This document shows positions 3,608 to 27,248 of a stretch of 28,061 bases of DNA, piece by piece (the stretch's first letter is position 1; every line of letters begins with the position of its first letter). The stretch lies in IMG/VR virus record IMGVR_UViG_3300035698_010745; one strand, written 5' to 3'. Made by a program: the position numbers and the translations under genes. The stretch comes from an uncultured virus (IMG/VR IMGVR_UViG_3300035698_010745). Taxonomy: Duplodnaviria; Heunggongvirae; Uroviricota; Caudoviricetes. Below the pieces are notes generated by a model. The model ran no database searches, was not told where the DNA came from, and was given only the letters and a program-made list of their open reading frames with translations.

Positions 3608-3830
3608 GATAACCCAGGAGTACGTGGACGAGAAGATTGAAGCCTACGATGTCGCTATCAACGCGCTGGTAGCACATGAGCCTGGCTCTGATTGTGACAA
3701 GGAGCTGGCGGCGATGCTCCGTGAGAAGCTGGCTAAAAAACTGAACAGAGAGTGCCAGCGGTGGTTCAACAAGTATGCAATGGAGGAAGACGATGATTCA
3801 AGTAATGATGGACCTGGAAACGATGGGTAA
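3600..3830 (+). CDS. hypothetical protein
   Basis: Overlapping start MPKITQEY... Confidence 0.6.
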   Translation: MPKITQEYVDEKIEAYDVAINALVAHEPGSDCDKELAAMLREKLAKKLNRECQRWFNKYAMEEDDDSSNDGPGNDG

Positions 3831-4335
3831 TAGTCACAACGCGGCTATTGTTGAAATTGCGGCGGTGAAGTTCGACCCGGCCAAGGGGTGTATCCTGGAC
3901 GACTTCGGCAGGAAGGTGGACCTGGAGAGTAGCATTGATATTGGACTTGAGGTGAACCCGGCCACCATTATCTGGTGGATGCAGCAGAGCGATGAAGCCC
4001 GGAAGAATGTGACGGACACGTCTGGGGCTATTACCATCAAGGAGGCCCTCGTGGACTTCGCGCAGTGGTATGGCCCGGATTTGCTGCCTATATGGGGCAA
4101 TGGGGTTGCCAGTGACAATGTCTGGATGAAGAGTGCTTTTGATAAGGCCGATTTGACGTGCCCGTGGACGCACAAGCAAGACCGGTGCTACCGGACCATC
4201 CGTGAGCTGTGCCCGCCGGACCTTCATACGCCGGACATCGGGACAAAGCACAAGGCGATGGACGATGCCATATTCCAGGCCACGCACCTGATGGCTATTC
4301 TCGGGACTTTGCCGTCTGGCAACGGATTGATGTAA
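3793..4335 (+). CDS. DEDDh 3'-5' exonuclease/exoribonuclease (DUF5051/RNase AS-like)
   Basis: MMDLETMG (ExoI), WGNG..SD (ExoII) and HKAMDDA (ExoIII) motifs; GGAGG RBS. Confidence 0.85.
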   Translation: MIQVMMDLETMGNSHNAAIVEIAAVKFDPAKGCILDDFGRKVDLESSIDIGLEVNPATIIWWMQQSDEARKNVTDTSGAITIKEALVDFAQWYGPDLLPIWGNGVASDNVWMKSAFDKADLTCPWTHKQDRCYRTIRELCPPDLHTPDIGTKHKAMDDAIFQATHLMAILGTLPSGNGLM

Positions 4336-4338
4336 TCT

Positions 4339-4364
4339 CAGAATCCTGGGGTGCCAGCGCAATG
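4339..4364 (+). promoter_or_regulatory. CAGAAT-N14-GCAATG motif (copy 4)
   Basis: Exact motif upstream of the tRNA operon. Confidence 0.7.
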
Positions 4365-4396
4365 ATGGACCAGGAGAAAAAAAGTTGAAAAAAAGG

Positions 4397-4426
4397 TTGC
4401 ACGGGTGAAGGGGCACGGAGTATAGT
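4397..4426 (+). promoter_or_regulatory. sigma70-type promoter of the tRNA operon
   Basis: TTGCAC-N18-TATAGT with upstream A-tracts (UP-element-like), just before tRNA-fMet. Confidence 0.65.
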
Positions 4427-4434
4427 CTTAATAC

Positions 4435-4511
4435 TGCGGGATGGAGCAGCCCGGTAGCTCGGGAGGTTCATAACCTCCAGGTCGTTGGTTCAAATCCAAC
4501 TCCCGCTACCA
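4435..4511 (+). tRNA. tRNA-fMet (CAT), initiator type
   Basis: Cloverleaf; 1:72 mismatch; initiator-like D arm TGGAGCAGCCCGGTAGCTCG; TTCAAAT T-loop; encoded CCA. Confidence 0.9.
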
Positions 4512-4519
4512 AGGAGAAG

Positions 4520-4612
4520 ATGAAAATGTTTGATGCACGGACAAGGACGAGAACGACAGGGCGCACCGGATGGACCGGTACGGCGTCCGGGGTCTGTTCT
4601 GTCCTCGTGTAA
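4520..4612 (+). CDS. attenuator leader peptide MKMFDARTRTRTTGRTGWTGTASGVCSVLV
   Basis: AGGAG RBS at 4512-4516; 15 consecutive Arg/Thr/Gly/Trp codons (4538-4582); followed by alternative hairpins and a terminator. Confidence 0.85.
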   Translation: MKMFDARTRTRTTGRTGWTGTASGVCSVLV

Positions 4613-4634
4613 AACCAAACGACAGAACGTAGAC

Positions 4635-4673
4635 GACCTCGGTTAGCCGAAAGGCCAATCGGGGTTTTTGTTT
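4635..4673 (+). terminator. intrinsic terminator (attenuator 3:4 hairpin)
   Basis: ACCTCGGTTAGCC-GAAA-GGCCAATCGGGGT stem (one mismatch) followed by TTTTGTTT. Confidence 0.85.
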
Positions 4674-4678
4674 GCCCG

Positions 4679-4698
4679 TCATAATTCTTTGATAATCG
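4679..4698 (+). promoter_or_regulatory. TCATAATTCTTTGATAwTCG motif upstream of HNH gene
   Basis: 19/20 identical to 7473-7492 (minus strand) upstream of the other tRNA-array endonuclease. Confidence 0.6.
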
Positions 4699-4741
4699 AA
4701 CCATTAGTGAGTGGTTACATTCACAAGGTGGAGGTTCGATT

Positions 4742-5389
4742 ATGAAAGATGGCAAGATGAGTAGGAGTGAGGCAGGGCGTCTTGGGTGGGAGAAATCCGA
4801 AGAAAAGAATAGGATAAGATATAAGAAGTTTAGGGATGAGTACGAGAAATGCCCAAAGATATGTGGGGATTGTGGAACCCCATTACCGTATGAAAAAAGA
4901 AGGCATCTCTTCTGCAATCATTCTTGTGCGGCAAAGAAAAACAACCAAGGAGTAAGAAGGAATGGGAGACAGCCGGGGAAGTGTTTGTATTGTGGCGAAA
5001 GGCTTCAGTTGTCGAGCAGAAAATTCTGTAACATCCAGTGCCAGAAGGAGCACTCTTACCAGGAATACATCAAAAAATGGTTGAGTGGCAAGGTCACGGG
5101 GCTGACAAATCACGGGCTTTCCATATCAAACCACATCAAGAGATGGCTCGTTGATACGTATGGGCGAGAGTGTTCGGTATGCGGTGGGACGGAATGGATG
5201 GGCGGGACAATGCCTCTTACGGTTGACCATGAGGACGGAAGTTACAAAAATAACAGACCTAAAAATCTTCGACTTGTTTGTGGGAATTGTGGGATGCAGT
5301 TGCCAACATTCGCTGGGAGAAATCGTGGAAATGGAAGACTGGCTAGAAAGCAGTGGGATGACAAATTGGCGGCAGTGATGTCGTCTTAA
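4742..5389 (+). CDS. HNH homing endonuclease with N-terminal zinc fingers
   Basis: CxxC..FCNxxC repeats; C-terminal CSVC...VDHEDG...NNRPKNLRLVCGNC; GGAGG RBS. Confidence 0.85.
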   Translation: MKDGKMSRSEAGRLGWEKSEEKNRIRYKKFRDEYEKCPKICGDCGTPLPYEKRRHLFCNHSCAAKKNNQGVRRNGRQPGKCLYCGERLQLSSRKFCNIQCQKEHSYQEYIKKWLSGKVTGLTNHGLSISNHIKRWLVDTYGRECSVCGGTEWMGGTMPLTVDHEDGSYKNNRPKNLRLVCGNCGMQLPTFAGRNRGNGRLARKQWDDKLAAVMSS

Positions 5390-5397
5390 ATTCAAAT

Positions 5398-5473
5398 GCC
5401 GGTGTAGCTCAGGTGGTAGAGCGCGATACTCGTAATATCGAAGTCACCCGTTCAAATCGGGTCTCCGGCTCCA
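5398..5473 (+). tRNA. tRNA-Thr (CGT)
   Basis: Anticodon arm CGATA-CTCGTAA-TATCG; CCA end. Confidence 0.92.
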
Positions 5474-5488
5474 GGTTGAAAATTGAAT

Positions 5489-5565
5489 AGGTCAGTAGCT
5501 CAATTAGGCAGAGCACCGGTCTCCAAAACCGGGGGTTGGGGGTTCAATTCCCTCCTGGCCTGCCA
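5489..5565 (+). tRNA. tRNA-Trp (CCA)
   Basis: CCGGT-CTCCAAA-ACCGG; G73; CCA end. Confidence 0.93.
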
Positions 5566-5599
5566 GTGACGCTCATTGAAAATAGAATATGAGAACAAT

Positions 5600-5642
5600 G
5601 CCGGGTGCCCAGAGGAAAACTGGGGCAAACCGCCCGGCTCCA
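5600..5642 (+). ncRNA. tRNA-like minihelix (acceptor stem, one hairpin, TCCA end)
   Basis: GCCGGGTG...CGCCCGGC-T-CCA with internal CCCAG/CTGGG hairpin, located between tRNA genes. Confidence 0.5.
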
Positions 5643-5643
5643 T

Positions 5644-5720
5644 GTGCCAGTAGCTCAGTTGGATAGAGCACTTCCCTCCGAAGGAAGGGGCCGCACGTTC
5701 GAACCGTGTCTGGCACACCA
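5644..5720 (+). tRNA. tRNA-Arg (CCG)
   Basis: CTTCC-CTCCGAA-GGAAG; A20; CCA end. Confidence 0.93.
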
Positions 5721-5727
5721 TTAAGAC

Positions 5728-5804
5728 GCCCCCATAGCTCAGTTGGTAGAGCAGCGCACCTGTAATGCGCAGGTCGACGGTTCGAATCCTGTCTGGGGGC
5801 TCCA
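5728..5804 (+). tRNA. tRNA-Thr (TGT), atypical C33
   Basis: GCGCA-CCTGTAA-TGCGC; Thr-type acceptor; CCA end. Confidence 0.85.
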
Positions 5805-5810
5805 CACAAT

Positions 5811-5886
5811 GCGACGGTAGCTCAGTTGGTAGAGCGCCACCTTGCCAAGGTGGGGGTCGAGAGTTCGAACCTCTTCCGTCGCTCCA
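5811..5886 (+). tRNA. tRNA-Gly (GCC)
   Basis: CCACC-TTGCCAA-GGTGG; U73; CCA end. Confidence 0.93.
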
Positions 5887-5888
5887 GT

Positions 5889-5964
5889 GCCGCTATAGCT
5901 CAGCCGGTAGAGCATCGCCTTGGTAAGGCGAAGGTCGTGAGTTCGATTCTCACTGGCGGCTCCA
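5889..5964 (+). tRNA. tRNA-Thr (GGT)
   Basis: TCGCC-TTGGTAA-GGCGA; CCA end. Confidence 0.93.
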
Positions 5965-6003
5965 AGGACGAGGTCAGGAGTTCGAACCTCCTTTCGGGCT
6001 CCA
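5965..6003 (+). pseudogene. 3' half of a tRNA (probably Thr-type)
   Basis: AGGACG-AGGTC-AGGAG-TTCGAAC-CTCCT-TTCGGGC-T-CCA; no 5' half seen. Confidence 0.75.
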
Positions 6004-6007
6004 GTAC

Positions 6008-6082
6008 GCGATGGTAGCTCAGTCAGGTAGAGCGACCTTCCCAAGGTCAATGTCACGAGTTCGATTCTCGTCCGTCGCTCCA
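6008..6082 (+). tRNA. tRNA-Gly (CCC), shortened anticodon stem
   Basis: GACC-TTCCCAA-GGTC directly abutting the D stem; CCA end. Confidence 0.8.
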
Positions 6083-6097
6083 AGTGTATAGTAGGGC

Positions 6098-6358
6098 ATG
6101 GGTACGAATGACGGCATACTGGCGAGGATTGCGTGTACAGCTTGCGGGTTTACGGATTATGTGACAGATGAACAATGGTGTAATGGGGCAGATGGGAAGG
6201 TCGGGCATACAAAGAGTGGTGTGTGGGCCTTCTCGTGGTGGAATGGCACACACACCGGGAACGCTTGTCTTTGTCCCAGGTGCAGGGAGCCGATGCCGGT
6301 CAAGCTGGAACCGGGACATTACGGCTTGGGTGTTACGTGGAATGAAATAGAATTTTAA
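6098..6358 (+). CDS. Cys-rich hypothetical protein within the tRNA array
   Basis: CTAC...CLCPRC; TATAGT-N5-ATG, no SD. Confidence 0.65.
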   Translation: MGTNDGILARIACTACGFTDYVTDEQWCNGADGKVGHTKSGVWAFSWWNGTHTGNACLCPRCREPMPVKLEPGHYGLGVTWNEIEF

Positions 6359-6359
6359 T

Positions 6360-6434
6360 GCGGCATAGGTGTTGTTGGTGGCACACGGGCCTTCCAAGCC
6401 TGTAGGACGAGTTCGAGCCTCGTATGCCGCACCA
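6360..6434 (+). tRNA. tRNA-Gly (TCC)
   Basis: CGGGC-CTTCCAA-GCCTG; A discriminator; CCA end. Confidence 0.88.
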
Positions 6435-6452
6435 GAAGGAAAGGAAGTGGCG

Positions 6453-6653
6453 ATGAATCCATCACATGTGATGTTTACGGACACCGACGGAGATGTCCAC
6501 GTGGCACCTCGTGAAGGCGTGAGGCTTGATAGCGATATCGGTAAAAATAGGTTATTCGTTACTGTTTGTGAGGAGGAAGAGTACGATATTTCCAAAGAGG
6601 AATTTGAAAGGATTACCCCTATCCTTACGGAAGCTCAGTTTATAGGGCCATAG
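6453..6653 (+). CDS. hypothetical protein (66 aa)
   Basis: AAGGA RBS; lies between tRNA genes. Confidence 0.6.
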   Translation: MNPSHVMFTDTDGDVHVAPREGVRLDSDIGKNRLFVTVCEEEEYDISKEEFERITPILTEAQFIGP

Positions 6654-6715
6654 TTCAACGGACAGAACAGAGGATTCCTAATCCTCAAATCTGGGTTCGA
6701 TTCCCAGTGGCCCTA
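6644..6715 (+). tRNA. tRNA-Arg (CCT), no encoded CCA
   Basis: GAGGA-TTCCTAA-TCCTC; 3' end duplicated at 7495-7514, where CCA follows. Confidence 0.88.
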
Positions 6716-6769
6716 GTTGGCGGATTCAGACCACCTCCACGCGGTGTCAATGGTAACAGGTAATGCTGG

Positions 6770-7456
6770 CTAAGAGTCTGATAAACGGGCATCAATGATG
6801 TCCTGAATGATTTTCAGGAACTTCATTGATGATTGTTCTTTGAAGTATTTTTGATGTGATGTGTCAATAGAACACAAACCGATGCCTGCTTCATGGCAGG
6901 CTGCAAACTTGCGCCTGTCGTTGTTTTGAACGGCATCTAGTTTGTCTTGCCCGTGAATTGGCTCGTAGTGGTAGATTCCATTGAGTTCAAAGGCAAGGTG
7001 AAGTGAGGGGATGAAAATATCGAGTTCGGACTGGATAGCATCCTTACGGTTGAAGTGAATTTCAAGGTCTGGATAGAGGGCAGTGAGTTGTTCTTCAAGC
7101 CACTTCTCCAGCTTGGAGCGTCGGGTACCATGCTTCTTGTGGAGATTGTTCCATCGCACGGAGCACGAACGATTGCAGAAATAGTTACCAGATTTTGATT
7201 TCTGGGAAGCGTATCTCCTTACTGGTTTGTTGCATTGCCTACAGGATGTGATTATGGCGGGGTGTTGGTAGAATCTTTCACACCGACTTGAACAGAAGCT
7301 GCCCGTTTCTCTGTTCCGGTTCGGATTTAGAATCATTTGGATTCGATGTTTGGAGATGCGGAATGGTTGCTGGCAGTGTTTGCATTTTAGTGGTAGCTTT
7401 TCACGAGATTTAGCAGCTTTGAATTCTTGGTCTGTATATAGTGGGTGCATGGTCAT
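6770..7456 (-). CDS. zinc-finger plus Vsr/DUF559-like (PD-(D/E)xK) putative homing endonuclease
   Basis: CxxC/FCSxxC repeats; ELDIFIPSLHLAFELNGIYHY; AGGAGG RBS on the minus strand. Confidence 0.8.
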   Translation of the reverse strand: MTMHPLYTDQEFKAAKSREKLPLKCKHCQQPFRISKHRIQMILNPNRNRETGSFCSSRCERFYQHPAIITSCRQCNKPVRRYASQKSKSGNYFCNRSCSVRWNNLHKKHGTRRSKLEKWLEEQLTALYPDLEIHFNRKDAIQSELDIFIPSLHLAFELNGIYHYEPIHGQDKLDAVQNNDRRKFAACHEAGIGLCSIDTSHQKYFKEQSSMKFLKIIQDIIDARLSDS

Positions 7457-7472
7457 CCTCCTACCTATAGAC

Positions 7473-7492
7473 CGAATATCAAAGAATTATGA
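7473..7492 (-). promoter_or_regulatory. TCATAATTCTTTGATAwTCG motif (copy 2)
   Basis: Reverse complement matches 4679-4698 at 19/20. Confidence 0.6.
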
Positions 7493-7733
7493 AATTCGAT
7501 TCCCAGTGGCCCTACCAAGGAAAGGAGGGTGACATGGCAAAAGGAAGATACATTATTGAAGATAGCCTGTACGGTGACGATTACGCATGTCGTAAAATGC
7601 CTGCCGAAAAAGGAAGCGGTTTGTAAGTGTGTGGCCCTGAATAAGAGTCCGGCCTAATGTGGGACTCCCAGTGCCGACGGGCGCGGTCCGACAATTCTTC
7701 CCGAAGGGATGTGTCCGCTGAAGAAAAATTCCC

Positions 7734-7759
7734 CAGAATTGATGCCCCTTTGCGCAATG
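7734..7759 (+). promoter_or_regulatory. CAGAAT-N14-GCAATG motif (copy 5)
   Basis: Exact motif upstream of tRNA-Arg(TCT). Confidence 0.75.
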
Positions 7760-7782
7760 AATGCTTAGGAGGGGCAAGAGAT

Positions 7783-7859
7783 GCCCCGGTAGCTCAGTAG
7801 GATAGAGCATCGGATTTCTAATCCGGCGGCCACAGGTTCGAATCCTGTTCGGGGCACCA
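7783..7859 (+). tRNA. tRNA-Arg (TCT)
   Basis: TCGGA-TTTCTAA-TCCGG; A20; CCA end. Confidence 0.93.
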
Positions 7860-13216: not shown

Positions 13217-13365
13217 AGGAGATTGTTGGTCTTGCGATAGCCATTAGCGGCTATGGCTTCGTTATCTGGATCATTCGGTTTGCCCACAAGGAGCGGATGA
13301 GAATGGTCCATCACATCTTGCAGAATATTCGTTCCCGTGGCCGTAGAATTACTTGTGTGGGATAG
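13210..13365 (+). CDS. small membrane protein (51 aa)
   Basis: AAGGAG RBS; single hydrophobic helix with basic tail. Confidence 0.55.
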   Translation: MVKEIVGLAIAISGYGFVIWIIRFAHKERMRMVHHILQNIRSRGRRITCVG

Positions 13366-13409
13366 CTGGATTTGATAATGTTTTTGTGTCACAAACTAAG
13401 GAGGTCAAA

Positions 13410-15818
13410 ATGAGCGACCGTATTCCGATGATTCCGCCGTTTCGTGTCGTTTCCCGCGTCCAGATTCTCGCGGAAACGAAGGACTATAACCACGAGATGA
13501 TGAATATCCCGGCCATGTGGCGGGAGACTCGTGGGGAAGGCGTCAAGATTGTCATCCTTGATACCGGAGTCCCCAATCACGATGACCTGAAGCCCGTTGG
13601 CGGGAAGTCCTTTATCCCTGGCTACGAAGAGGACCATAATGGTCATGGATGTGTTTCTCCAGATACCCTTGTTCATACTAATTTTTGTGGCATCGAGACT
13701 ATTGAGAGGCTGTACTCTCGGGTGGAGACTCCTGAGCTGACATGGGAGTCCCCGGATGGAAGTACCGGAATGGTCAAAGACGTGAGGAGTATGGGAATAA
13801 AGACCTATGCGCTTGATGAAGATAGCGGCCTCGCCACCATTGCCCCGATTGAGCTTATGCACCGAACAAAAGTGTCAGGGCAAGTGTGCAGTGTCAGCCT
13901 TGAAGGGGGAGAGTCTTACAAGTTGACGCCGTGGCATGAGGTTTGCGTTCTTGTTCACCTTCATCATGACAGGTATGAAGTCAGAAGAAAGCGTGCCGAT
14001 GCATTGAAGGAGGGGGACCGGATGCTGTTTGCGAGTGGCCCGGTTGCGGGGAATCTTGTTTCGGAGCCGTATCGGGTTGAGGGGTCAAAATATCGAGAGT
14101 GTCTGAACTGTGGTCATATTCCGAATAATTTCAAGCCAAGGTCATCAAGGTGCCAATGTAAAAAATGTGGCAAGTTAAGGTGGGTGGAGAAAAGAAGGGT
14201 TCACCTTGTGACCGAAGACTGGGCATACTTGGCTGGTCTTGTCGTAACGGATGGTCATATTTCTATCAAGGGGTATCGTGTAGAGATTACTTCGGAGACT
14301 CCTGAGATTCTTAATGCCGCAATTGAGGCGGCGTCCCGTCTTGGAATAACCGGCAAGATAGATGTTCCGAGGGGAAGGTGTCCCAGAGTCTTATTTGGCT
14401 CTAAGGAAATGGTTGATGTTATGCTCTCGATGGGAATTCAAGCATTTCGGAAAACATACACGCAGACATTGCCGGAATTCGTAGGGAAATCTCCTTTTCC
14501 TGTTGTTTGCTCGTTTGTTGCCGGGACTATTGATGGGGATGGATGTATTTCTCCTAAGAACACCAAGAATCGCATCACGACGGCATCCCCCGACTTCGCT
14601 CGCCAGTTTTCCGCGCTGCTGAACAGCATTGGCGTCTCCAGTGGTGTTCAGAATTACGGGAAAGGTCGTGGCTTTAGTTCCGGCAAGAAACAGAGTGGAT
14701 TTGTGGATGTTCTGAATGTTACCTTTTCAGGAATATTGCCAGAGATAGCCTCTCGTCTGTGCCATCCCGTCAAGAGAGAGAGGGGAAGTCGGGAACTAAA
14801 CCATAGAAGAAAGGCTCGCAGGATTTCGAGTGTAGGGAGGGAGGAGTGGAGCGGAGACTTCTTCGACTTCACCGTGTCTGGACATCATACTTATCTTGGA
14901 AATGGGCATTTTGTCAGCAACACGCATTGCGGAGGCATTATTGCCGCCCTGGCCAACAACAATATGGGTGTCGCCGGGATTGCCCCGGAGTGTGAGGATT
15001 ACTATGGAGCCGTTCTGGATAGGAGTGGTTCCGGGGAAATCTCACAGATTGTTTCCGGTATTCGTTGGGCCGTGGACGTAATCGGAGCCAACGTCATCAG
15101 CATGAGTCTCGGAATCCCGGATGGTTATCCTATCAACCCATCACTCGAAGCCGCCGTAAATTACGCTCGTAGCCAAGGCATAGCCGTCATTTGTGCCGCA
15201 GGCAATGAGGCCGGAGGTGTCGGACAGCCCGCGTGTTACGACAGTGCAATTGCCGTTGCCGCCGTCAACAGCCGTCACGAGAATGCGTCATTCTCCAACA
15301 GGGGGCCGGAAATCGATTTCGCAGCGGGTGGTGTGAATGTCTACTCCACGTACCTGAATAACGGCTATGCCAAGCTGTCAGGGACGAGTATGGCATGCCC
15401 GGCATTGGCTGCCGTGGCGACGCTTATCCTTGCGGACGAGAAGAAGGACCATGACCGGTGGATGTCGCCTGACGAACTCGTTGAGAAGATGAAGCGTATT
15501 GCCTATGACGTTGGCGGGGACGGCTTCGATGAGTTGTACGGACACGGCATCCCCGTATTCCGTGCTGGAGAAGGAGAGCCGGACGAGCCGGAAACCGGCG
15601 AGCCACCACTTCCGCCGGACCCTGACCCAAAGCCCGAGAAGCCTAAGAAGTCCGCCTTCCCGTGTGGCTTGACCTGGAAGGTACTCAAAGCGTTTTCGGA
15701 TGGAGCCGATGTTGCGGCAAGGGGTGGAGCAGACCCGGATGGGGCCATTCTTGCCGGTCTGCAATCCGTCGGGGAGTACGCCGGAAAAGCTACCGAAGTC
15801 AGACAGGATGATGCCTAG
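13410..15818 (+). CDS. S8 subtilisin-like (intracellular-type) serine protease containing an intein
   Basis: ILDTG (Asp), NGHG|THCGG (His), AAGN, GTSMACP (Ser); AAGGAGG RBS; no signal peptide. Confidence 0.92.
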   Translation: MSDRIPMIPPFRVVSRVQILAETKDYNHEMMNIPAMWRETRGEGVKIVILDTGVPNHDDLKPVGGKSFIPGYEEDHNGHGCVSPDTLVHTNFCGIETIERLYSRVETPELTWESPDGSTGMVKDVRSMGIKTYALDEDSGLATIAPIELMHRTKVSGQVCSVSLEGGESYKLTPWHEVCVLVHLHHDRYEVRRKRADALKEGDRMLFASGPVAGNLVSEPYRVEGSKYRECLNCGHIPNNFKPRSSRCQCKKCGKLRWVEKRRVHLVTEDWAYLAGLVVTDGHISIKGYRVEITSETPEILNAAIEAASRLGITGKIDVPRGRCPRVLFGSKEMVDVMLSMGIQAFRKTYTQTLPEFVGKSPFPVVCSFVAGTIDGDGCISPKNTKNRITTASPDFARQFSALLNSIGVSSGVQNYGKGRGFSSGKKQSGFVDVLNVTFSGILPEIASRLCHPVKRERGSRELNHRRKARRISSVGREEWSGDFFDFTVSGHHTYLGNGHFVSNTHCGGIIAALANNNMGVAGIAPECEDYYGAVLDRSGSGEISQIVSGIRWAVDVIGANVISMSLGIPDGYPINPSLEAAVNYARSQGIAVICAAGNEAGGVGQPACYDSAIAVAAVNSRHENASFSNRGPEIDFAAGGVNVYSTYLNNGYAKLSGTSMACPALAAVATLILADEKKDHDRWMSPDELVEKMKRIAYDVGGDGFDELYGHGIPVFRAGEGEPDEPETGEPPLPPDPDPKPEKPKKSAFPCGLTWKVLKAFSDGADVAARGGADPDGAILAGLQSVGEYAGKATEVRQDDA
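13650..14921 (+). mobile_element. intein (424 aa) with LAGLIDADG homing endonuclease
   Basis: Starts CVSPDTLV; block B LTPWH; LAGLVVTDG and FVAGTIDGDG; ends FDFTV..HTYLGNGHFVSN followed by Thr+1. Confidence 0.92.
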
Positions 15819-20900: not shown

Positions 20901-21124
20901 CATTGGCGAAACATAGGAACATCTCCATTGGGGGAATTGTCTATCAGTGGAAGGTGTCTGCCAACCGGAAGCTTCACTTGGTAGTGTTCGACCCGGCAAC
21001 CAAGCGGAAGCTGGTGGTCTACTTTGATGAGCCGTCTGTTGTTCTCACCCCGAAATCCGTTCGTGAGTTCATTCTTGAGGCCGAGGCCCAGGGCTGGACC
21101 GGCACGATTCGTTGGGACAGGTAG
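20897..21124 (+). CDS. hypothetical protein
   Basis: ATGA overlap; ends LTPKSVREFILEAEAQGW. Confidence 0.7.
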   Translation: MTLAKHRNISIGGIVYQWKVSANRKLHLVVFDPATKRKLVVYFDEPSVVLTPKSVREFILEAEAQGWTGTIRWDR

Positions 21125-21386
21125 TGACAACGGCAAGCAGATTTGAGGTGGGCGACATTCAGGTCTCACCAGCAGGCACAAGCATCTTGCGGGAATGCAC
21201 AACTGGGTCTATATGTTCACTGGATACAGCCGAGGTGGACGTGCTCTACTCCATTCCGGTAAACCCCGCAAAAAAGAAGTGGATTTCGTCACACCTCCCG
21301 GTGTATAGTCTCTATGGATTCAAGGCCGTAGAAAGTCTTCACTCCATCGTCAGGCTGTTTTTTGTGGTGCCCGGAAGAGATTTTTT

Positions 21387-21412
21387 CAGATTCCGGGCAT
21401 GGTCGGGCAATG
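21387..21412 (+). promoter_or_regulatory. CAGATT-N14-GCAATG motif variant (copy 9)
   Basis: One mismatch; upstream of the release-factor RBS. Confidence 0.65.
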
Positions 21413-21432
21413 GGAGAAGAAGGAGGTACACC

Positions 21433-22114
21433 ATGAAGGATGAAGTCATAGTTGAAATCAGGGCCGCTGAAGGCGGAGCTGATGCGAAACTCTTAGTGCG
21501 CGACCAGCATAGTATTTACTGTGCTTTTGCGAGCCGAGAGCGGCTTTGACCTAGCCCTTCTGGAAGAAAGAGACGGTTACATTTCCTTCTGGGCTCGGGG
21601 TAACGGGGCTCGGAAGCGATTCCTCCCCGAATGCGGTGGCCATAGGTGGCAGCGTGTTCCCCCTACCGAGAAGCGTGGCAGGTATCAAACCTCCACGATA
21701 ACTGTAGCCGTGGTCGGTGAAGTGGGCATCAGTGTGTCCATCCGGCCCGAGGATTTGGAGTGGAGGTTCTGCCGGGGCCGAGGCAAGGGTGGACAGAACC
21801 GAAACAAACTGGATACGGCGGTGCATTTGACGCATAGGCCGACCGGAATCCGGGTGTGGTGCGAAGATGAGCGCAAGCAGTCGCAGAATAAGCGCAAGGC
21901 GCTACAGCGATTGACGGAGGAGGTTGAGAAGCGGAGCCGGGAGCAAGCCGGAGCCAAGCAGAATAAGGAGCGCAGGCAACAGATAGGTTCAGGGATGAGG
22001 GGTGACAAGATTCGCACTATCCGGGTCCGGGATGATACCGTGACGAACCATTTGAACGGTAGAAAAATACGGTATACGGACTATGTGAAGGGCATCTTCA
22101 AAGGGCTACAATGA
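21433..22114 (+). CDS. class I peptide chain release factor-like protein (domain 1 absent), made via +1 programmed frameshift (about 226 aa)
   Basis: Frame 0 (21433-21546) VEIRAAEGGADAKL; CTT-TGA-C at 21544-21550; +1 frame has ECGGHRWQRVPPTE...TST, GKGGQNRNK and R.DKIRT. Confidence 0.88.
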
Positions 22115-22268: not shown

Positions 22269-22934
22269 ATGACAGCGGCAGCAACACTGGCACAGAACAA
22301 CAGGGTTTTGGTGCTAAACAAGAACTGGCAACCGGTCAATGTGATGAGCGTTTTGGGCGCGATTCATAAGGTCTGGAAAGAGCGGGCAAAATTCGTAGAC
22401 CCAGAGACGTACGCTACGTACGATTTCGAAAGTTGGGTGACGAACTGGGATGACGCTATTCGTTATTCGCGAATCGCGGAAGACCGTATTGTGCCTGGTG
22501 CCGGGTTCTCTTTGGTGTTGCCGGAGGTTGTCGTTTGCACCGAGTACGGCGGGTTTCAGTCCTGTGTGTCTCGTCGCAGGCCGAAGTTCAGCCGGACGAA
22601 CATTTACCGGCGGGACAAGAAAACCTGTCAGTATTGTGGCCGCAAGCACAAGATGGCCGACTTGACGATGGAGCACGTGGTTCCGAAGTCTCAGGGTGGC
22701 GAGATGACTTGGGAGAACATTGCGTTGGCTTGCTTTAACTGTAACCAGAAGAAGCGGGACAGGACGCCTCGGCAAGCGGGGATGCGGTTGATTCGTCGGC
22801 CTTTCCGTCCGACGGCCCAGGATATGGCTGTTACGCCGATGGAGCGGTTGCAGCGCAAGATTGGCGGGAATGCGCCCAAGACCTGGGAAGCGTTCCTGGG
22901 CAAGATGTACATGAATGTCGAGCTGAAGGACTAG
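22269..22934 (+). CDS. HNH endonuclease (McrA-like)
   Basis: VLVLN...FSRTNIYRRD..TCQYCG...EHVVPKSQGG..WENIALACFNCN..K; AAGGAGG RBS. Confidence 0.9.
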   Translation: MTAAATLAQNNRVLVLNKNWQPVNVMSVLGAIHKVWKERAKFVDPETYATYDFESWVTNWDDAIRYSRIAEDRIVPGAGFSLVLPEVVVCTEYGGFQSCVSRRRPKFSRTNIYRRDKKTCQYCGRKHKMADLTMEHVVPKSQGGEMTWENIALACFNCNQKKRDRTPRQAGMRLIRRPFRPTAQDMAVTPMERLQRKIGGNAPKTWEAFLGKMYMNVELKD

Positions 22935-23018: not shown

Positions 23019-23948
23019 ATGAGGAATGTCTCTGAAAAGCATCTTCGACTACTTTTAGCCGGAGCCGAGTTTGTCAATGGCACACAGCGTGATGGATGGG
23101 GGACAAATCTTCAAGCCCTAGTTACTTTTATGGAGAATAATGGCAAGTTGCCGCGACAAAGGTCGAAACACCGGGAAGAAAGAAGAATGGGGAATTGGTG
23201 TGCTCTCCAGCGGAAGAGACACAAGAGAGGAGACTTATCTGACGAAAAGGTTGGAGCCCTGAATTCGCATCCTTGGTGGCAGTGGGATTCTCGAAAAACC
23301 GGAGATTTGGAGTGGATTGAGATTCTTTGTCGGATTGATGTTCTGGGGCGGCTTCCTTCTCGTTATTCCAAAGATGAAGGAGAAAGGTTTTTGGGGAAAT
23401 GGTGTTCCCGCCAAAGGACGAGGCACAAGGGAGGGGTGCTGTCTCCCCGTCGGACATCTCTCCTTGAGACCAGGGGGTGGTGGAAATGGGACGATGGCAT
23501 AGACTGGGATGCCCATCTGGAAATGATGTGTGCGAGGATTAAGGATTTTGCCTCAAAAGAGGGGAGACTTCCGGCCATTTCTGGGCCAGAAGACGAAGCT
23601 GATATGATGAAATGGATTTATGAACAGAAAAGGAAGCAGTCGAACGGGAGGCTATCCAGAAAGAGGGCGGATGCGTTGCGAGATGTGGAGATAGAACTGC
23701 GAGGCATGGGGATAGCGTCGCAACAACCCTATCGGGATGGGTGGCATAAAGATTTCAAGTTGGTCAGGGTTTTTGTTCGGGAACATGCGAAGTTTCCTTC
23801 TAGGTGTTCCAAGGACTCCGAAGAGAAACGGATGGGGAATTGGTGTCACACCCAAAGAAAGGCTTTTAAGGGCCAAGACGGGCGCAAAATAATACGTGAA
23901 CGGGTTAAGTTGCTTGAGTCTATCCCCGGTTGGTACTGGAGTAAATAA
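23019..23948 (+). CDS. helicase-associated (HA) repeat protein
   Basis: Repeats of W...F...G.LP.....E..MG.WC..QR...L....W.W. Confidence 0.8.
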   Translation: MRNVSEKHLRLLLAGAEFVNGTQRDGWGTNLQALVTFMENNGKLPRQRSKHREERRMGNWCALQRKRHKRGDLSDEKVGALNSHPWWQWDSRKTGDLEWIEILCRIDVLGRLPSRYSKDEGERFLGKWCSRQRTRHKGGVLSPRRTSLLETRGWWKWDDGIDWDAHLEMMCARIKDFASKEGRLPAISGPEDEADMMKWIYEQKRKQSNGRLSRKRADALRDVEIELRGMGIASQQPYRDGWHKDFKLVRVFVREHAKFPSRCSKDSEEKRMGNWCHTQRKAFKGQDGRKIIRERVKLLESIPGWYWSK

Positions 23949-23995: not shown

Positions 23996-26107
23996 ATGTG
24001 TGTTATCGAAGAGGCATTCCGAGTCGCAAGCAAATCCGCAGTGAACGGTAAATTCCTAAATTCAACGGATACCGGCACGTACAACAATGCTGGAATATTC
24101 GAGTGCTCCATGAAAGAGCATCAGCGGGACCTGTATAACGCCCATGCCTTCTCTCCATTTCTTGTCTACTTGTCTCCGACAGGGTCTGGCAAGTCAACTG
24201 CCGTCAGGTTTTGCCTCATTCCCCGAATCCTAGAAGACCCCAACCAGAAGGTGGTTATTGCCATACCGACATTGGCGAACGCGGTCCCATTTCGGGACGT
24301 TATCCTAATATTTGATGACGGTAGCCGGATGCGATGGTCGCCCGGCGTTGACTTGTGTAAGGGGGCCAACAACGAGAAGGGTAAGATTCAAACCCTTGTC
24401 GATTTCCTGAAGCAGAAGAAGTTTAACAAGAGCCCGACGTTCCGAATCGCGATTTGTAGCCATGTCACCTTGGCTGGCGCTGACAAGGCCCTTCGGAAAG
24501 AAGGGGCATCCGTTCGTGGTAAAGCCTACAGAAATACGAATATCGTGGTCGATGAAGCTCACCACGTCAAAGACCATGAAACAGAGCGTAACCAGATAGG
24601 GAATCTGGCAGACTTCCTTGTGTCAAATCGAAAGACCATACCCGGAGCATCCTTGTGGTTGGTTACAGCTACGTGGATGAGGGGTGATTGCCTCTCTATC
24701 GTGTCCCCCACAAACAGGGACGTGTTCGACTGCCACGAACTGCCAATGGATGAGCATTGGAATAATAACTTCAAGTACCTCAAGGAATATCAGTATGGCT
24801 TTGTCCACTATACAGGCGAGCCGTTCTCTGCGATTACTTCCGCATTCAAGGTGAGCCGTGGAAAGACCATTATCTATTGCCCGCCGAATGGAAGCCGATT
24901 GACGAATCGGCACACAAACGGGTGCAAGTTGGCATTTCGCAGACACTTGAAGAGGGCCACTGAGAAGGCGTGGCCCGGTGTCAGGATTCTGGATTTGGTT
25001 GATGAAGCGGGGCGTGATGGCCGGAAGGAAAATATCCTGACAGTACCAGCCGTGATGGCAAAGGATGTGGATGTGGTATTCGCAGTGGCCATGTTTGATG
25101 AGGGTGTTGATTGGCCGGAGGCCGAGCAGGTCTTTGATTTGTCCCCGAGCGGTTCCAACCGCATCCATGCACAGCGGAATGGACGACTGACCCGTGACAT
25201 TCCGGGGAAGGAAAAGATTTCCTACCTTGTTTTCCTGCCAACGTGCATCGAAGAGATAATGGACCGCGAGCTACACCGTCGGTATCTAAACATGACCCAT
25301 GCCGCGTTGAATTCTTCGTACTTGATGGAGGATTGGTTTCATCCTGCCAAAATAACGGAAAAGTCTCGGAATGGGCATCCGGTTGACAAATCGGAGGCTG
25401 TCAACTGGTTCAGGGAAGAGGTCCCGGATTACAATGACCGGTCTGACTTGCTGGAAAAAGTAGAAAGCGAACTCCTGAGTTTGCGCGGATTGGGCAAAGT
25501 GGCCAAATCCCGTATCAGGAGAACCATCACGGGGGTGGTTGAGGATTTCGGAGTAGAGCATGTGGACGCCATCGTCCGTCAGATAACCTTGATGTTCCGG
25601 CGCAGGACACTGGCCGTTGGGGAAGACATGGGGTGGGCCGTGGACGCCGGTTTCGACGAGCTATGGGATGACAGCATTCTTGATGGGATGTTGACGTTCA
25701 TTGCAAATAGCTGTGGCATCAAGACATTTGCCAAGTACCGAAAAATAAGTGCCGAATACTGGGAACACATTTGGGAACAGAACATGGGTGACTATGAGGC
25801 GTTTCTGAAGAGGGGTGGCCGTCGCCCCCGTATCAACGCCAAGAGTAAGAAGGAAGCCAAGTTGGCAAAGTGGTTTGAGGGTGAAATGCGGAAGAAGGAA
25901 CTACGGAGCGAGAACAATTTGGTTGTGTCCAAGATTGCGGCTTACAAGAAGGCTCATGGCCGTTTTCCAGGGCGGAGCACTAAAGACCCGGATGATGACC
26001 GTCGCAACCTTGGGAAGGCGTACTTCGCTTTGCGGGATGAATACAAGGGAGGCACGATGTCGGATGAGCGGGTTGACAAGCTGAAGAAGGCATTCGGTTG
26101 GAAATAG
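23996..26107 (+). CDS. superfamily 2 (DEAH) helicase with C-terminal HA-like repeats
   Basis: SPTGSGKS (I), VVDEAHH (II), TAT (III), FDEGVD (V), QRNGRLTR (VI). Confidence 0.88.
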   Translation: MCVIEEAFRVASKSAVNGKFLNSTDTGTYNNAGIFECSMKEHQRDLYNAHAFSPFLVYLSPTGSGKSTAVRFCLIPRILEDPNQKVVIAIPTLANAVPFRDVILIFDDGSRMRWSPGVDLCKGANNEKGKIQTLVDFLKQKKFNKSPTFRIAICSHVTLAGADKALRKEGASVRGKAYRNTNIVVDEAHHVKDHETERNQIGNLADFLVSNRKTIPGASLWLVTATWMRGDCLSIVSPTNRDVFDCHELPMDEHWNNNFKYLKEYQYGFVHYTGEPFSAITSAFKVSRGKTIIYCPPNGSRLTNRHTNGCKLAFRRHLKRATEKAWPGVRILDLVDEAGRDGRKENILTVPAVMAKDVDVVFAVAMFDEGVDWPEAEQVFDLSPSGSNRIHAQRNGRLTRDIPGKEKISYLVFLPTCIEEIMDRELHRRYLNMTHAALNSSYLMEDWFHPAKITEKSRNGHPVDKSEAVNWFREEVPDYNDRSDLLEKVESELLSLRGLGKVAKSRIRRTITGVVEDFGVEHVDAIVRQITLMFRRRTLAVGEDMGWAVDAGFDELWDDSILDGMLTFIANSCGIKTFAKYRKISAEYWEHIWEQNMGDYEAFLKRGGRRPRINAKSKKEAKLAKWFEGEMRKKELRSENNLVVSKIAAYKKAHGRFPGRSTKDPDDDRRNLGKAYFALRDEYKGGTMSDERVDKLKKAFGWK

Positions 26108-26108
26108 C

Positions 26109-27248
26109 ATGAAGAACATACCCGAAAAGCATTTGAGGCTGCTGCTGGCTGGGGCAGAGTTCGGCGAGACTCAGGACCCTGACCAGAGATGGGAGGAGAT
26201 TTTCGGAAAGGTGAAAGAATTCAGGGATGTCCACAATAAATTTCCTTCGCGTTATTCAAAACAACCGGGAGAAAAGAGGTTGGGAAGATGGTGTCACAGT
26301 CAGAAGAATGCTCGTAGGGGGACCAGAGGGACAATTACCGATGATAGAATTAAGCAACTTGAATCTATTGATGGATGGTTGTGGAACTCGGATTTTGATG
26401 GCAGATGGAAAGAAAATCTTTACAAGGTCATAGCATTTCAGAATGAGCATGGAAGATTCCCTTTCGACTCTGGAAAAGACCGGGAGCAACAACGATTGGC
26501 ACGATGGATGCAGAACCAAAAAAAATCTAAGAAAGGTAGAGGGGGTAAGATGACTCCCGAAAGGATAAAGGACCTTGAGTCTCTTTCTGGTTGGAACTGG
26601 GAATCGGATGACTCCGATAGGCGATGGCAAGAATCATTTGAAAGGGTTAAGAGGAACGGAATCCCTTCCTTGTCCTCAAAGAATCAGAAAGAACGTAAAT
26701 TATCAATATGGTGTAATTCCCAGAGGCAGGCTAGAACGGGTTCAAATGCCGGTAAGATGACTCCCGATAGAATTAAGCAACTTGAATCTATTGATGGATG
26801 GTTGTGGGAAAATGACTTTGATGACAGGTGGCAGGACAATCTTGATAAGGTCAGAACATTTCAGAATAAGCATTGCCGGGTTCCTTCGGTGAGGTCAAAG
26901 AATCAGGAAGAAAAGAGATTGGGTAAATGGTGTTATCATCAGAAAAGAGCCTTGGCAGGTGGCCATTACAAGACAACTCCTGATAGAGTCAAAGCTCTTG
27001 AATCCATACCGGGTTGGACATGGAAAAATGACTTTGATGACAGGTGGCAGGACAATCTTGATAAAGTCAGGACATTTCGGAATGAACACGGAAGGTTGCC
27101 ACGTCACCACAAAGACCCAGAAGAGCGACGATTAGTATGTTGGTGTCGAGGTCAAAGGTGTGCCTATTTGGGCAATAGTCATTACAAGACGACGCCCGAG
27201 CGAATCAAGGCCCTTGAAGCAATCGAAGGCTGGTACTGGAGCAAATAA
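26109..27248 (+). CDS. helicase-associated (HA) repeat protein, five repeats
   Basis: Five ~70-aa repeats ending RIK.LESI.GW.W. Confidence 0.82.
   Translation: MKNIPEKHLRLLLAGAEFGETQDPDQRWEEIFGKVKEFRDVHNKFPSRYSKQPGEKRLGRWCHSQKNARRGTRGTITDDRIKQLESIDGWLWNSDFDGRWKENLYKVIAFQNEHGRFPFDSGKDREQQRLARWMQNQKKSKKGRGGKMTPERIKDLESLSGWNWESDDSDRRWQESFERVKRNGIPSLSSKNQKERKLSIWCNSQRQARTGSNAGKMTPDRIKQLESIDGWLWENDFDDRWQDNLDKVRTFQNKHCRVPSVRSKNQEEKRLGKWCYHQKRALAGGHYKTTPDRVKALESIPGWTWKNDFDDRWQDNLDKVRTFRNEHGRLPRHHKDPEERRLVCWCRGQRCAYLGNSHYKTTPERIKALEAIEGWYWSK
26343..27064 (+). repeat. exact intragenic direct repeats
   Basis: 42 bp at 26343-26384 = 26766-26807; 40 bp at 26809-26848 = 27025-27064. Confidence 0.85.

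Follow-up and report, generated by a model that had tools for sequence, protein, structure and literature searches.

A putative leader-peptide attenuator heading a phage tRNA operon, with control codons in the amino acids of the downstream tRNAs

We analysed a window of 28,061 nucleotides (nt) from an uncultured virus (IMGVR_UViG_3300035698_010745; Caudoviricetes), focusing on positions 4512..7859, where a short leader open reading frame (ORF) and an intrinsic terminator stand between an initiator-like transfer RNA (tRNA) gene and an array of ten further tRNA genes. With a probability of about 0.7, we read positions 4397-4673 as a ribosome-mediated leader-peptide transcription attenuator that heads a phage tRNA operon and would make tRNA supply demand-controlled. 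This reading is supported because the match between leader codons and downstream tRNAs is far beyond chance, because the alternative pairings of the leader RNA and the placement of its stop codon fit the trp-type model, and because eight analogous units in other phages match their own tRNA blocks. It rests on anatomy, statistics and analogues, from which we infer translation of the leader, its coupling to transcription and the response.

Results

The leader is written in the amino acids of the downstream tRNAs

ARAGORN and Rfam both find 11 tRNA genes in the window, all of them + strand genes located from 4435 to 7859. The first, tRNA-Met, combines an encoded CCA end with a U1.U72 mismatch and an A11:U24 pair, which we take to be marks of a bacterial initiator tRNA (tRNA-fMet). 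The amino acids of the ten tRNAs downstream of it are exactly Thr, Arg, Gly and Trp (T, R, G and W), represented by full isoacceptor sets for Thr, Gly and Trp and by three Arg species. The elements at the head of the unit and the tRNAs that follow are listed here in window coordinates.

4397..4426, + strand: promoter-like TTGCAC, 18-nt spacer, TATAGT; found by a relaxed hexamer scan and not listed by a stricter consensus scan; function presumed
4435..4511, + strand: tRNA-Met (CAT), initiator-like (ARAGORN; Rfam, 59.1 bits); first gene of the unit, upstream of the putative attenuator
4511..4516, + strand: Shine-Dalgarno sequence AAGGAG, overlapping the final base of the tRNA-Met CCA end
4520..4612, + strand: leader ORF of 30 codons, peptide MKMFDARTRTRTTGRTGWTGTASGVCSVLV; stop codon TAA at 4610-4612, alternative in-frame ATG at 4526
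4538..4582, + strand: control codons 7-21 (7 Thr, 4 Arg, 3 Gly, 1 Trp; 11 distinct codons)
4534..4611, + strand: predicted 1:2 hairpin, anti-antiterminator and likely pause hairpin (-39.2 kcal/mol), with the control codons in its 5' arm
4587..4642, + strand: predicted 2:3 antiterminator, 4587-4603 pairing with both 4621-4629 and 4635-4642 (-24.2 kcal/mol as long as region 4 is absent)
4635..4673, + strand: intrinsic terminator (3:4), with a stem-loop at 4635-4666 and a U tract at 4665-4673 (-18.9 kcal/mol)
5398..6716, + strand: nine tRNA genes, Thr-CGT, Trp-CCA, Arg-CCG, Thr-TGT, Gly-GCC, Thr-GGT, Gly-CCC, Gly-TCC and Arg-CCT
7783..7859, + strand: tRNA-Arg (TCT), set apart from the other tRNAs by a reverse-strand homing-endonuclease gene

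The promoter-like site stops 8 nt 5' of tRNA-fMet. The original prediction, made from the letters of the stretch alone, had described a ribosome-binding site and a 30-amino-acid ORF directly after tRNA-fMet and had listed codons 7-21; our reading of the sequence confirms both. It had also stated that the downstream tRNAs serve only Thr, Trp, Arg and Gly and that each of the ten has a codon in this run, and ARAGORN, Rfam and codon reading agree: all 10 downstream anticodon classes have a cognate codon in the run, and CGC is the sole codon without a tRNA in the window.

The 15-residue run of Thr, Arg, Gly and Trp is the longest in the window in all six frames, the runner-up having 9 residues. 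Runs of these four amino acids number 7803, 1907, 474, 117, 45, 5, 5, 2 and 1 at lengths 1 to 9, dropping about four-fold per extra residue, and are followed by the single run of 15. Shuffling, put forward in the original prediction as a measure of chance, bears the match out: in dinucleotide-preserving shuffles, a run of at least 15 appears in 0 of 20000 for the whole ORF and in 1 of 20000 for its T-poor 51-nt core, and coverage of all 10 anticodon classes in 0 of 20000 for the whole ORF and the core alike. Codon position 2 is G or C in 15/15 control codons in the ATG frame and the other two frames read very differently, a periodicity that we interpret as a coding-type signal and not a helix signal.

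The mirror between leader and array is solid at the level of amino acids. At the level of isoacceptors it is an accurate description of the run and, as a design, only suggestive, because the fraction of codons that are cognate by wobble is not above expectation, at 15/16 against 14.2 expected for the window leader and 99/115 against 93.4 expected from synonymous usage over all nine units (the window and the eight analogues described below). The isoacceptor-level tuning that had been proposed is not supported by this fraction; only the coverage of all ten classes points that way, with p = 0.012 (uniform synonymous choice) to 0.017 (phage usage) when the peptide is held fixed.

Predicted alternative RNA structures fit a trp-type switch

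The 181 nt 3' of tRNA-fMet fold with z = -3.19, 2 of 200 shuffles being equally stable, and AAGGAG is unpaired in the minimum-free-energy fold. The terminator consists of a 14-pair stem with one A.C mismatch and a GAAA loop, followed by TTTTTGTTT; because of that mismatch, a simple consensus terminator scan did not list it. The intrinsic terminator of the original prediction is accordingly present at 4635-4673, although not next to the array, since an HNH endonuclease gene (4742-5389) lies between. The predicted 2:3 pairing occupies 4635-4642, the 5' half of the terminator stem, and the stop codon TAA stands directly 3' of region 2 (4587-4609). When regions 2-4 are all present, the terminator conformer (-33.3 kcal/mol) and the antiterminator conformer (-33.0 kcal/mol) are isoenergetic in the model, which would make this a case where kinetics decides.

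As a plausible mechanism, transcription would start just 5' of tRNA-fMet and enter the 30-codon leader, whose translation would act as the sensor. A ribosome slowed in region 1 (4538 to about 4575) by any codon for Thr, Arg, Gly or Trp would leave region 2 free to pair with region 3 (4621-4642) once the latter is made, thereby blocking the terminator and allowing the polymerase to continue into the HNH gene and the Thr, Trp, Arg and Gly tRNA genes. Upon quick reading, the ribosome would reach the stop codon and, because this lies directly after region 2, would mask that region, so that 3:4 forms and transcription ends at the U tract (about 4673). If the leader is not translated at all, the very stable 1:2 hairpin would give the same outcome as quick reading, namely termination. 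Because read-through would yield tRNAs that speed leader decoding, the circuit would be one of negative feedback, in which scarcity of charged tRNA for the control codons turns production of the phage tRNAs on and abundance turns it off. The initiator tRNA, located upstream of the switch, would be made in either state.

We simulated the ribosome footprint by placing the A site on successive leader codons and folding the nascent RNA up to the terminator loop. With the footprint at codons 4-16, 11 nt of the terminator 5' half pair with region 2; across codons 18-20 the count declines, first to 8 and later to 4 terminator nucleotides, and between codon 22 and the stop just 0-2 are paired upstream. 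According to this model, the last two or three control codons would lie too near region 2 to work.

Analogous leader-terminator units in other phages

Analogue loci were fetched through relatives of the endonuclease encoded at 6770-7456, a gene unrelated to the leader, which gave 28 IMG/VR loci (L109-L136; 47-61% identity), 19 of them with at least four tRNAs. A first pass covered 1895 short ORFs located 5' of tRNAs, in the window as well as in these loci; the window leader ranked at the extreme, with ORFs of L116 and L113 next. When a segment log-odds score was applied to 991 short ORFs, those of the window, L113, L109 and L116 stood apart at 24.9-27.3 bits (26.1 bits for the window leader in the pooled scan), and 24.9 bits was reached by 3 of 19820 random amino-acid-set controls. 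On its own tRNA block the window leader scores 39.2, compared with at most 5.4 on other blocks.

The surroundings of every terminator were read in the records of L109, L113 and L116 (G001, G002 and G003, respectively). These three unrelated IMG/VR phages contain eight leader-terminator units in which the leader amino acids match the unit's own tRNA block; seven of the eight leaders start with MK.

G001, leader MKNLVNIQPQPQQHPQDGEWGSYT: block of Pro, His, Pro, Gln and Gln (P/H/Q)
G001, leader MKNLLDILMVVLDAVLWAADEDRLCSVG: block of Asp, Asp, Glu, Glu, Val, Val, Leu, Ala and Trp (D/E/V/L/A/W)
G001, leader MTTFRKYYYCKKSYKKYLIRIGIIMSKVMI: block of Lys, Lys and Tyr (K/Y)
G003, three units homologous to those of G001: blocks of the same kinds
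G002, Phe/Val/Leu/Arg leader: block of Phe, Phe, Val, Leu, Val, Val and Arg (F/V/L/R)
G002, leader MKLTVNTQQQQQQPSYYEGCLAIVY: block of four tRNA-Gln (Q)

In every analogue unit, a strong intrinsic terminator stands 8-130 nt 5' of the first tRNA. In the leader-by-array score matrix, 8/8 leaders score highest on their own block within the phage, and 0 of 100000 permutations reach the total of the diagonal. In all three analogues that were folded, region 2 mimics the 3' half of the terminator and forms a footprint-dependent antiterminator as in the window, with energies matched by 0, 7 and 23 of 1000 shuffles. The search for a short ORF and terminator at other tRNA arrays, by which the original prediction meant to probe the idea in related phages, succeeded in unrelated phages; relatives of the window phage itself were not found.

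Other tRNA-adjacent terminators were also inspected. In L117 and L118 (two sites) they mark where long protein-coding frames end, have no matched leader and were rejected. At those in L122, L123 and G002 at 3642 no matching ORF was found, and no Leu-rich ORF was found at the G002 terminator that precedes four tRNA-Leu genes.

The G001, G002 and G003 units have a motif in common, TTTGT..CGTATTTA, located 30-90 nt upstream of the leader ATG, which is probably the promoter of each tRNA sub-operon. As a separate observation on these loci, ARAGORN called tRNAs with the amber-reading CTA anticodon in L120, L121, L125 and G003 (about 20740 in oriented coordinates), which may be suppressor tRNAs and would then hint at stop-codon recoding.

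Endonuclease genes within the unit

Between the terminator and the array, and within the array, the window contains the following further features.

4668..4696, + strand: weak promoter-like TTGTTT, 17-nt spacer, GATAAT, overlapping the U tract; 8/12 matches in the relaxed scan, not listed by the stricter scan
4742..5389, + strand: HNH endonuclease gene with its own GGAGG site; HNH_3 below the Pfam cut-off; phrog_10822, 7e-16
6098-6358 and 6450-6653: two small ORFs within the nine-tRNA stretch
6770-7456, - strand: HNH/homing-endonuclease gene, just 3' of tRNA-Arg (CCT)

The HNH gene (648 nt) ends 8 nt 5' of tRNA-Thr, and neither the sequence nor the terminator scan places a terminator between them. 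Without this gene, the distance from the terminator to tRNA-Thr would be about 84 nt, within the range of the analogues; because the analogues' terminators stand so close to their tRNAs, the HNH gene is probably a secondary insertion. From the promoter-like site at 4668..4696, transcription of the HNH gene and the array might bypass the terminator.

The reverse-strand gene at 6770-7456 is flanked by a 19-nt repeat of the 3' end of tRNA-Arg (CCT), at 6696-6714 and 7495-7513, the distal copy being followed by ACCA (to 7517). It looks like a homing insertion into the tRNA 3' end, with duplication of that end. Because the HNH gene and this repeat-flanked homing endonuclease both sit here, the array has evidently been invaded by mobile endonuclease genes. 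The relatives of the 6770-7456 endonuclease (47-61% identity) are located almost always within large-phage tRNA arrays, on the strand opposite the tRNAs, and can be regarded as a tRNA-array-homing endonuclease family. The 28 kb contain a third HNH endonuclease gene at 22269-22934 (+ strand), and the window as a whole is unusually rich in selfish endonucleases. Between Thr-GGT and Gly-CCC lies a tRNA 3'-half remnant (5965-6003), in which the T arm and the acceptor strand extend to CCA and the 5' half is missing; it reads as a decayed or truncated tRNA gene.

Occurrence of the stretch and search for relatives

The stretch is present in six salt-lake metagenome runs from six studies, spanning several years and at low depth; no RNA run is among those listed as containing it. 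DNA contigs covering the leader from four salt-lake runs are identical to the window, with zero polymorphism. Contig joints whose sides measure 20-25 nt resemble tRNA clusters of other organisms and were left unused.

No relative of the phage or of its leader was found in IMG/VR, JGI metagenomes or GenBank phages. In these collections, relatives of the neighbouring proteins show at most 48% identity over substantial alignments and none carries a related array. The exonuclease at 3775-4335 returned 34 IMG/VR viral loci (at most 47% identity) and 56 metagenome loci (at most 48%), with scattered tRNAs and no related array. The 542-amino-acid protein returned 18 loci at no more than 40% identity, none with an array; in two more loci the match is confined to 29 residues (59% identity). 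With tblastn, this protein found 2 phage records (31% identity). Exact searching of IMG/VR viral contigs with a 29-mer from the leader gave 0 matches, the HNH gene at 4742-5389 has no related locus there, and no relative was found for the 86-amino-acid ORF. Comparison of 4300-4760 and 5390-6090 with GenBank phages by blastn yielded single-tRNA similarities only. An Rfam scan of the window at gathering thresholds returned only the 11 tRNAs and no T-box.

Discussion

Observations that weigh against an attenuator

Several observations weigh against the reading of 4397-4673 as an attenuator of the tRNA array. On the sequence side, the failure to find any relative of the phage or leader is joined by the cognate-codon fraction of the window leader, which is not above expectation, and by the position of the first ATG, only 3 nt from AAGGAG; the in-frame ATG at 4526, at 9 nt, is better spaced. 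On the structural side, 26 of 1000 shuffles of the upstream portion fold at least as stably as 2:3, whose energy is thus only moderately unusual; 368 of 1000 reach the number of terminator bases that pair upstream, which is not significant; and a ribosome stalled near the end of the control codons (about 19-21) would sit on part of region 2. Full-length equilibrium folds keep the terminator at nearly all stall positions, and the switch must therefore work kinetically.

The layout adds further points of this kind. The gap from the terminator to the first tRNA is 732 nt and includes the HNH gene with its own ribosome-binding site, and the weak promoter-like site at 4668-4696 falls in the same gap. 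Promoter-like sites at 6065-6092 and 6326 and the reverse-strand gene at 6770-7456 lie inside the array. Of the internal promoter-like motifs that had been flagged as a possible bypass, the relaxed scan recovers those at 4668-4696 and 6065-6092 and nothing near 7734; the stricter consensus promoter scan lists 5 sites, compared with 4.6 in shuffles. With these features intervening, control of the whole array is not supported. Read-through control of the first nine tRNAs is plausible, and that of tRNA-Arg (TCT) at 7783 is uncertain.

Among the comparisons, the analogue units were partly chosen by the same score with which they were then tested in the leader-by-array matrix. Outside the window, 9 distinct terminators lie no more than 130 nt from a tRNA, and 4 of them have a matched leader. 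In the T5 tRNA region, 59 short ORFs were scored with a best value of 9.2 bits and no matched leader, and in Phaeobacter phage MD18, 31 short ORFs with a best value of 5.8 bits and no matched leader; because these two phages show none, the leader-terminator design is not universal.

Alternative explanations

A more specific proposal is that the leader resolves single isoacceptors and raises an alarm when anticodon nucleases or tRNA-modifying toxins damage host tRNAs, releasing replacement tRNAs only under attack. More generally, phage tRNAs counter tRNA-targeting defences. The presence of all 10 anticodon classes in the run, at the frequencies given above both for synonymous choice with the peptide fixed and for shuffles, argues for such resolution, and the complete Thr, Gly and Trp sets with three Arg species look more like replacement than like supplementation of rare codons. 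In addition, PMC13096335 reports a tRNA-cleaving defence system and phage counter-measures in the tRNA region. However, neither the window nor the analogues link the element to defence, cognate codons do not exceed the synonymous expectation, and a stall would report any shortage of charged tRNA, including one caused by starvation or by plain codon demand. Moreover, we know of no tRNA-targeting system that acts on the tRNAs for Thr, Arg, Gly and Trp together. We therefore consider a dedicated damage alarm unlikely. A low likelihood likewise attaches to the bolder picture of the leader as a test strip with at least one codon per phage tRNA, which would sense the loss of any single host tRNA species and release the full replacement set; the initiator tRNA would then lie outside the switch so that the sensor is always translatable.

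Alternatively, the attenuator might be real and mainly gate the HNH gene, with the array served by its own promoter or promoters and the codon match reflecting shared ancestry of the module and not present-day control. The HNH gene is indeed the first after the terminator and carries its own GGAGG site, and promoter-like sites are present at 4668-4696, 6065-6092 and 6326. These sites are, however, weak (8/12), the number listed by the consensus scan is close to that in shuffles, and the analogue terminators directly abut tRNAs. Since the HNH stop codon lies 8 nt from tRNA-Thr and no terminator intervenes, read-through transcripts must enter the array, and the codon set would make no sense for an endonuclease gene. 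This arrangement therefore appears quite improbable.

Finally, it is very unlikely that the terminator is simply that of the tRNA-fMet unit and the ORF a chance frame in a structured 3' trailer (perhaps a processing substrate or a source of small RNA): a tRNA with a hairpin-rich trailer and a terminator is ordinary, this trailer folds stably (z = -3.19), no relative of the ORF was found, and the metY-nusA-infB operon of Escherichia coli also opens with an initiator tRNA followed by partial terminators, but the 15-codon run is the extreme of the window and is almost never reached in shuffles of the ORF or core, it equals the amino acids of the following array exactly, its position 2 is always G or C as in a coding signal and not a helix signal, and the same design of ORF and terminator recurs in other phages with other amino-acid sets.

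Implications and genomic context

Why phages carry tRNA genes and how these genes are controlled is a long-standing question. In the attenuator that we favour, the input could be read directly from the control element: its test frame spells out the amino acids of the tRNAs that follow, implying that the phage gauges decoding capacity and produces tRNA according to demand. It would extend the textbook attenuation of amino-acid operons to tRNA genes with a direct feedback loop, and it offers a simple rule, that a leader and its block agree in composition, by which transcription units within the tRNA arrays of phages could be predicted. Being compact and natural, the element could also serve as a part from which sensors for particular tRNA pools are built. 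If the test-strip picture were true, the tRNA arrays of phages would amount to counter-defence modules that are inducible and carry their own sensor.

Elsewhere in the window, two overlapping + strand frames resemble release factors, 21112-21549 (weak PCRF) and 21521-22114 (PCRF and RF-1, 97 bits), and together look like a phage class-I peptide chain release factor that is split by a frameshift or requires one; the release factor and the tRNA array point to heavy investment in translation. A subtilisin-like S8 peptidase gene at 13353-15818 (+ strand) is interrupted by an intein with a LAGLIDADG homing-endonuclease domain. Genes at 23019-23948, 23996-26107 and 26109-27248 (+ strand) encode a helicase between two proteins of repeated helicase-associated (HA) domains, in 4 and 5 copies.

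Comparison with known systems

Multivalent leader attenuators are familiar from enterobacteria, as in thrL (Thr and Ile codons) and the ilvGMEDA leader (Ile, Leu and Val), alongside trpL, hisL, leuL and pheL. The window element shares with these amino-acid leaders a short ORF, clustered codons of several amino acids and predicted 1:2, 2:3 and 3:4 pairings, as well as a stop codon placed for masking of region 2 and, presumably, read-through when charged tRNA is short. Unlike them, it would regulate tRNA genes and an HNH gene instead of biosynthetic enzymes, it samples four amino acids with 11 codons, is borne by a phage and has an initiator tRNA earlier in the unit, and its output tRNA would feed back directly on the quantity sensed. 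To our knowledge, all known leader-peptide attenuators regulate genes for amino-acid biosynthesis or aminoacyl-tRNA synthetases; with an HNH gene and 10 tRNA genes downstream, the window departs from this membership. The original prediction knew of no attenuator described for a tRNA array, and full-text literature searching likewise yielded, in the text that it covers, no published description of leader-peptide attenuation of tRNA genes. Within that literature, its application to phage tRNA genes would be an extension of published systems.

The pheM leader attenuator controls pheST, which encodes phenylalanyl-tRNA synthetase. Like the proposed window attenuator, it uses leader-peptide attenuation to control part of the machinery by which the sensed amino acid is decoded; it differs in acting on a synthetase gene, for one amino acid, in a cellular genome. 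T-box riboswitches similarly respond to one specific tRNA pool by switching between terminator and antiterminator, but they bind uncharged tRNA directly and need no translation, and the window has no T-box match. The metY-nusA-infB operon resembles the window in that an initiator tRNA opens the operon and is followed by a partially read-through terminator; it differs in that no leader peptide with matched codons is known there and its downstream genes encode proteins.

The closest parallels are the analogue units of L109, L113 and L116, which like the window combine a short ORF in the amino acids of the block, a terminator and a region 2 that mimics the terminator 3' half. These phages differ from the window in being AT-rich, in lacking a Shine-Dalgarno site, in sharing a promoter-like motif, in having terminators 8-130 nt from the tRNA and in carrying several units per genome with different amino-acid sets. 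The window, for its part, has a Shine-Dalgarno sequence, a guanine-plus-cytosine content of about 52%, tRNA-fMet in front and the HNH gene behind the terminator, and no sequence similarity to the analogues. Because the window phage is unrelated in sequence to the AT-rich examples, its form of the element suggests either independent evolution or a very old, widespread design.

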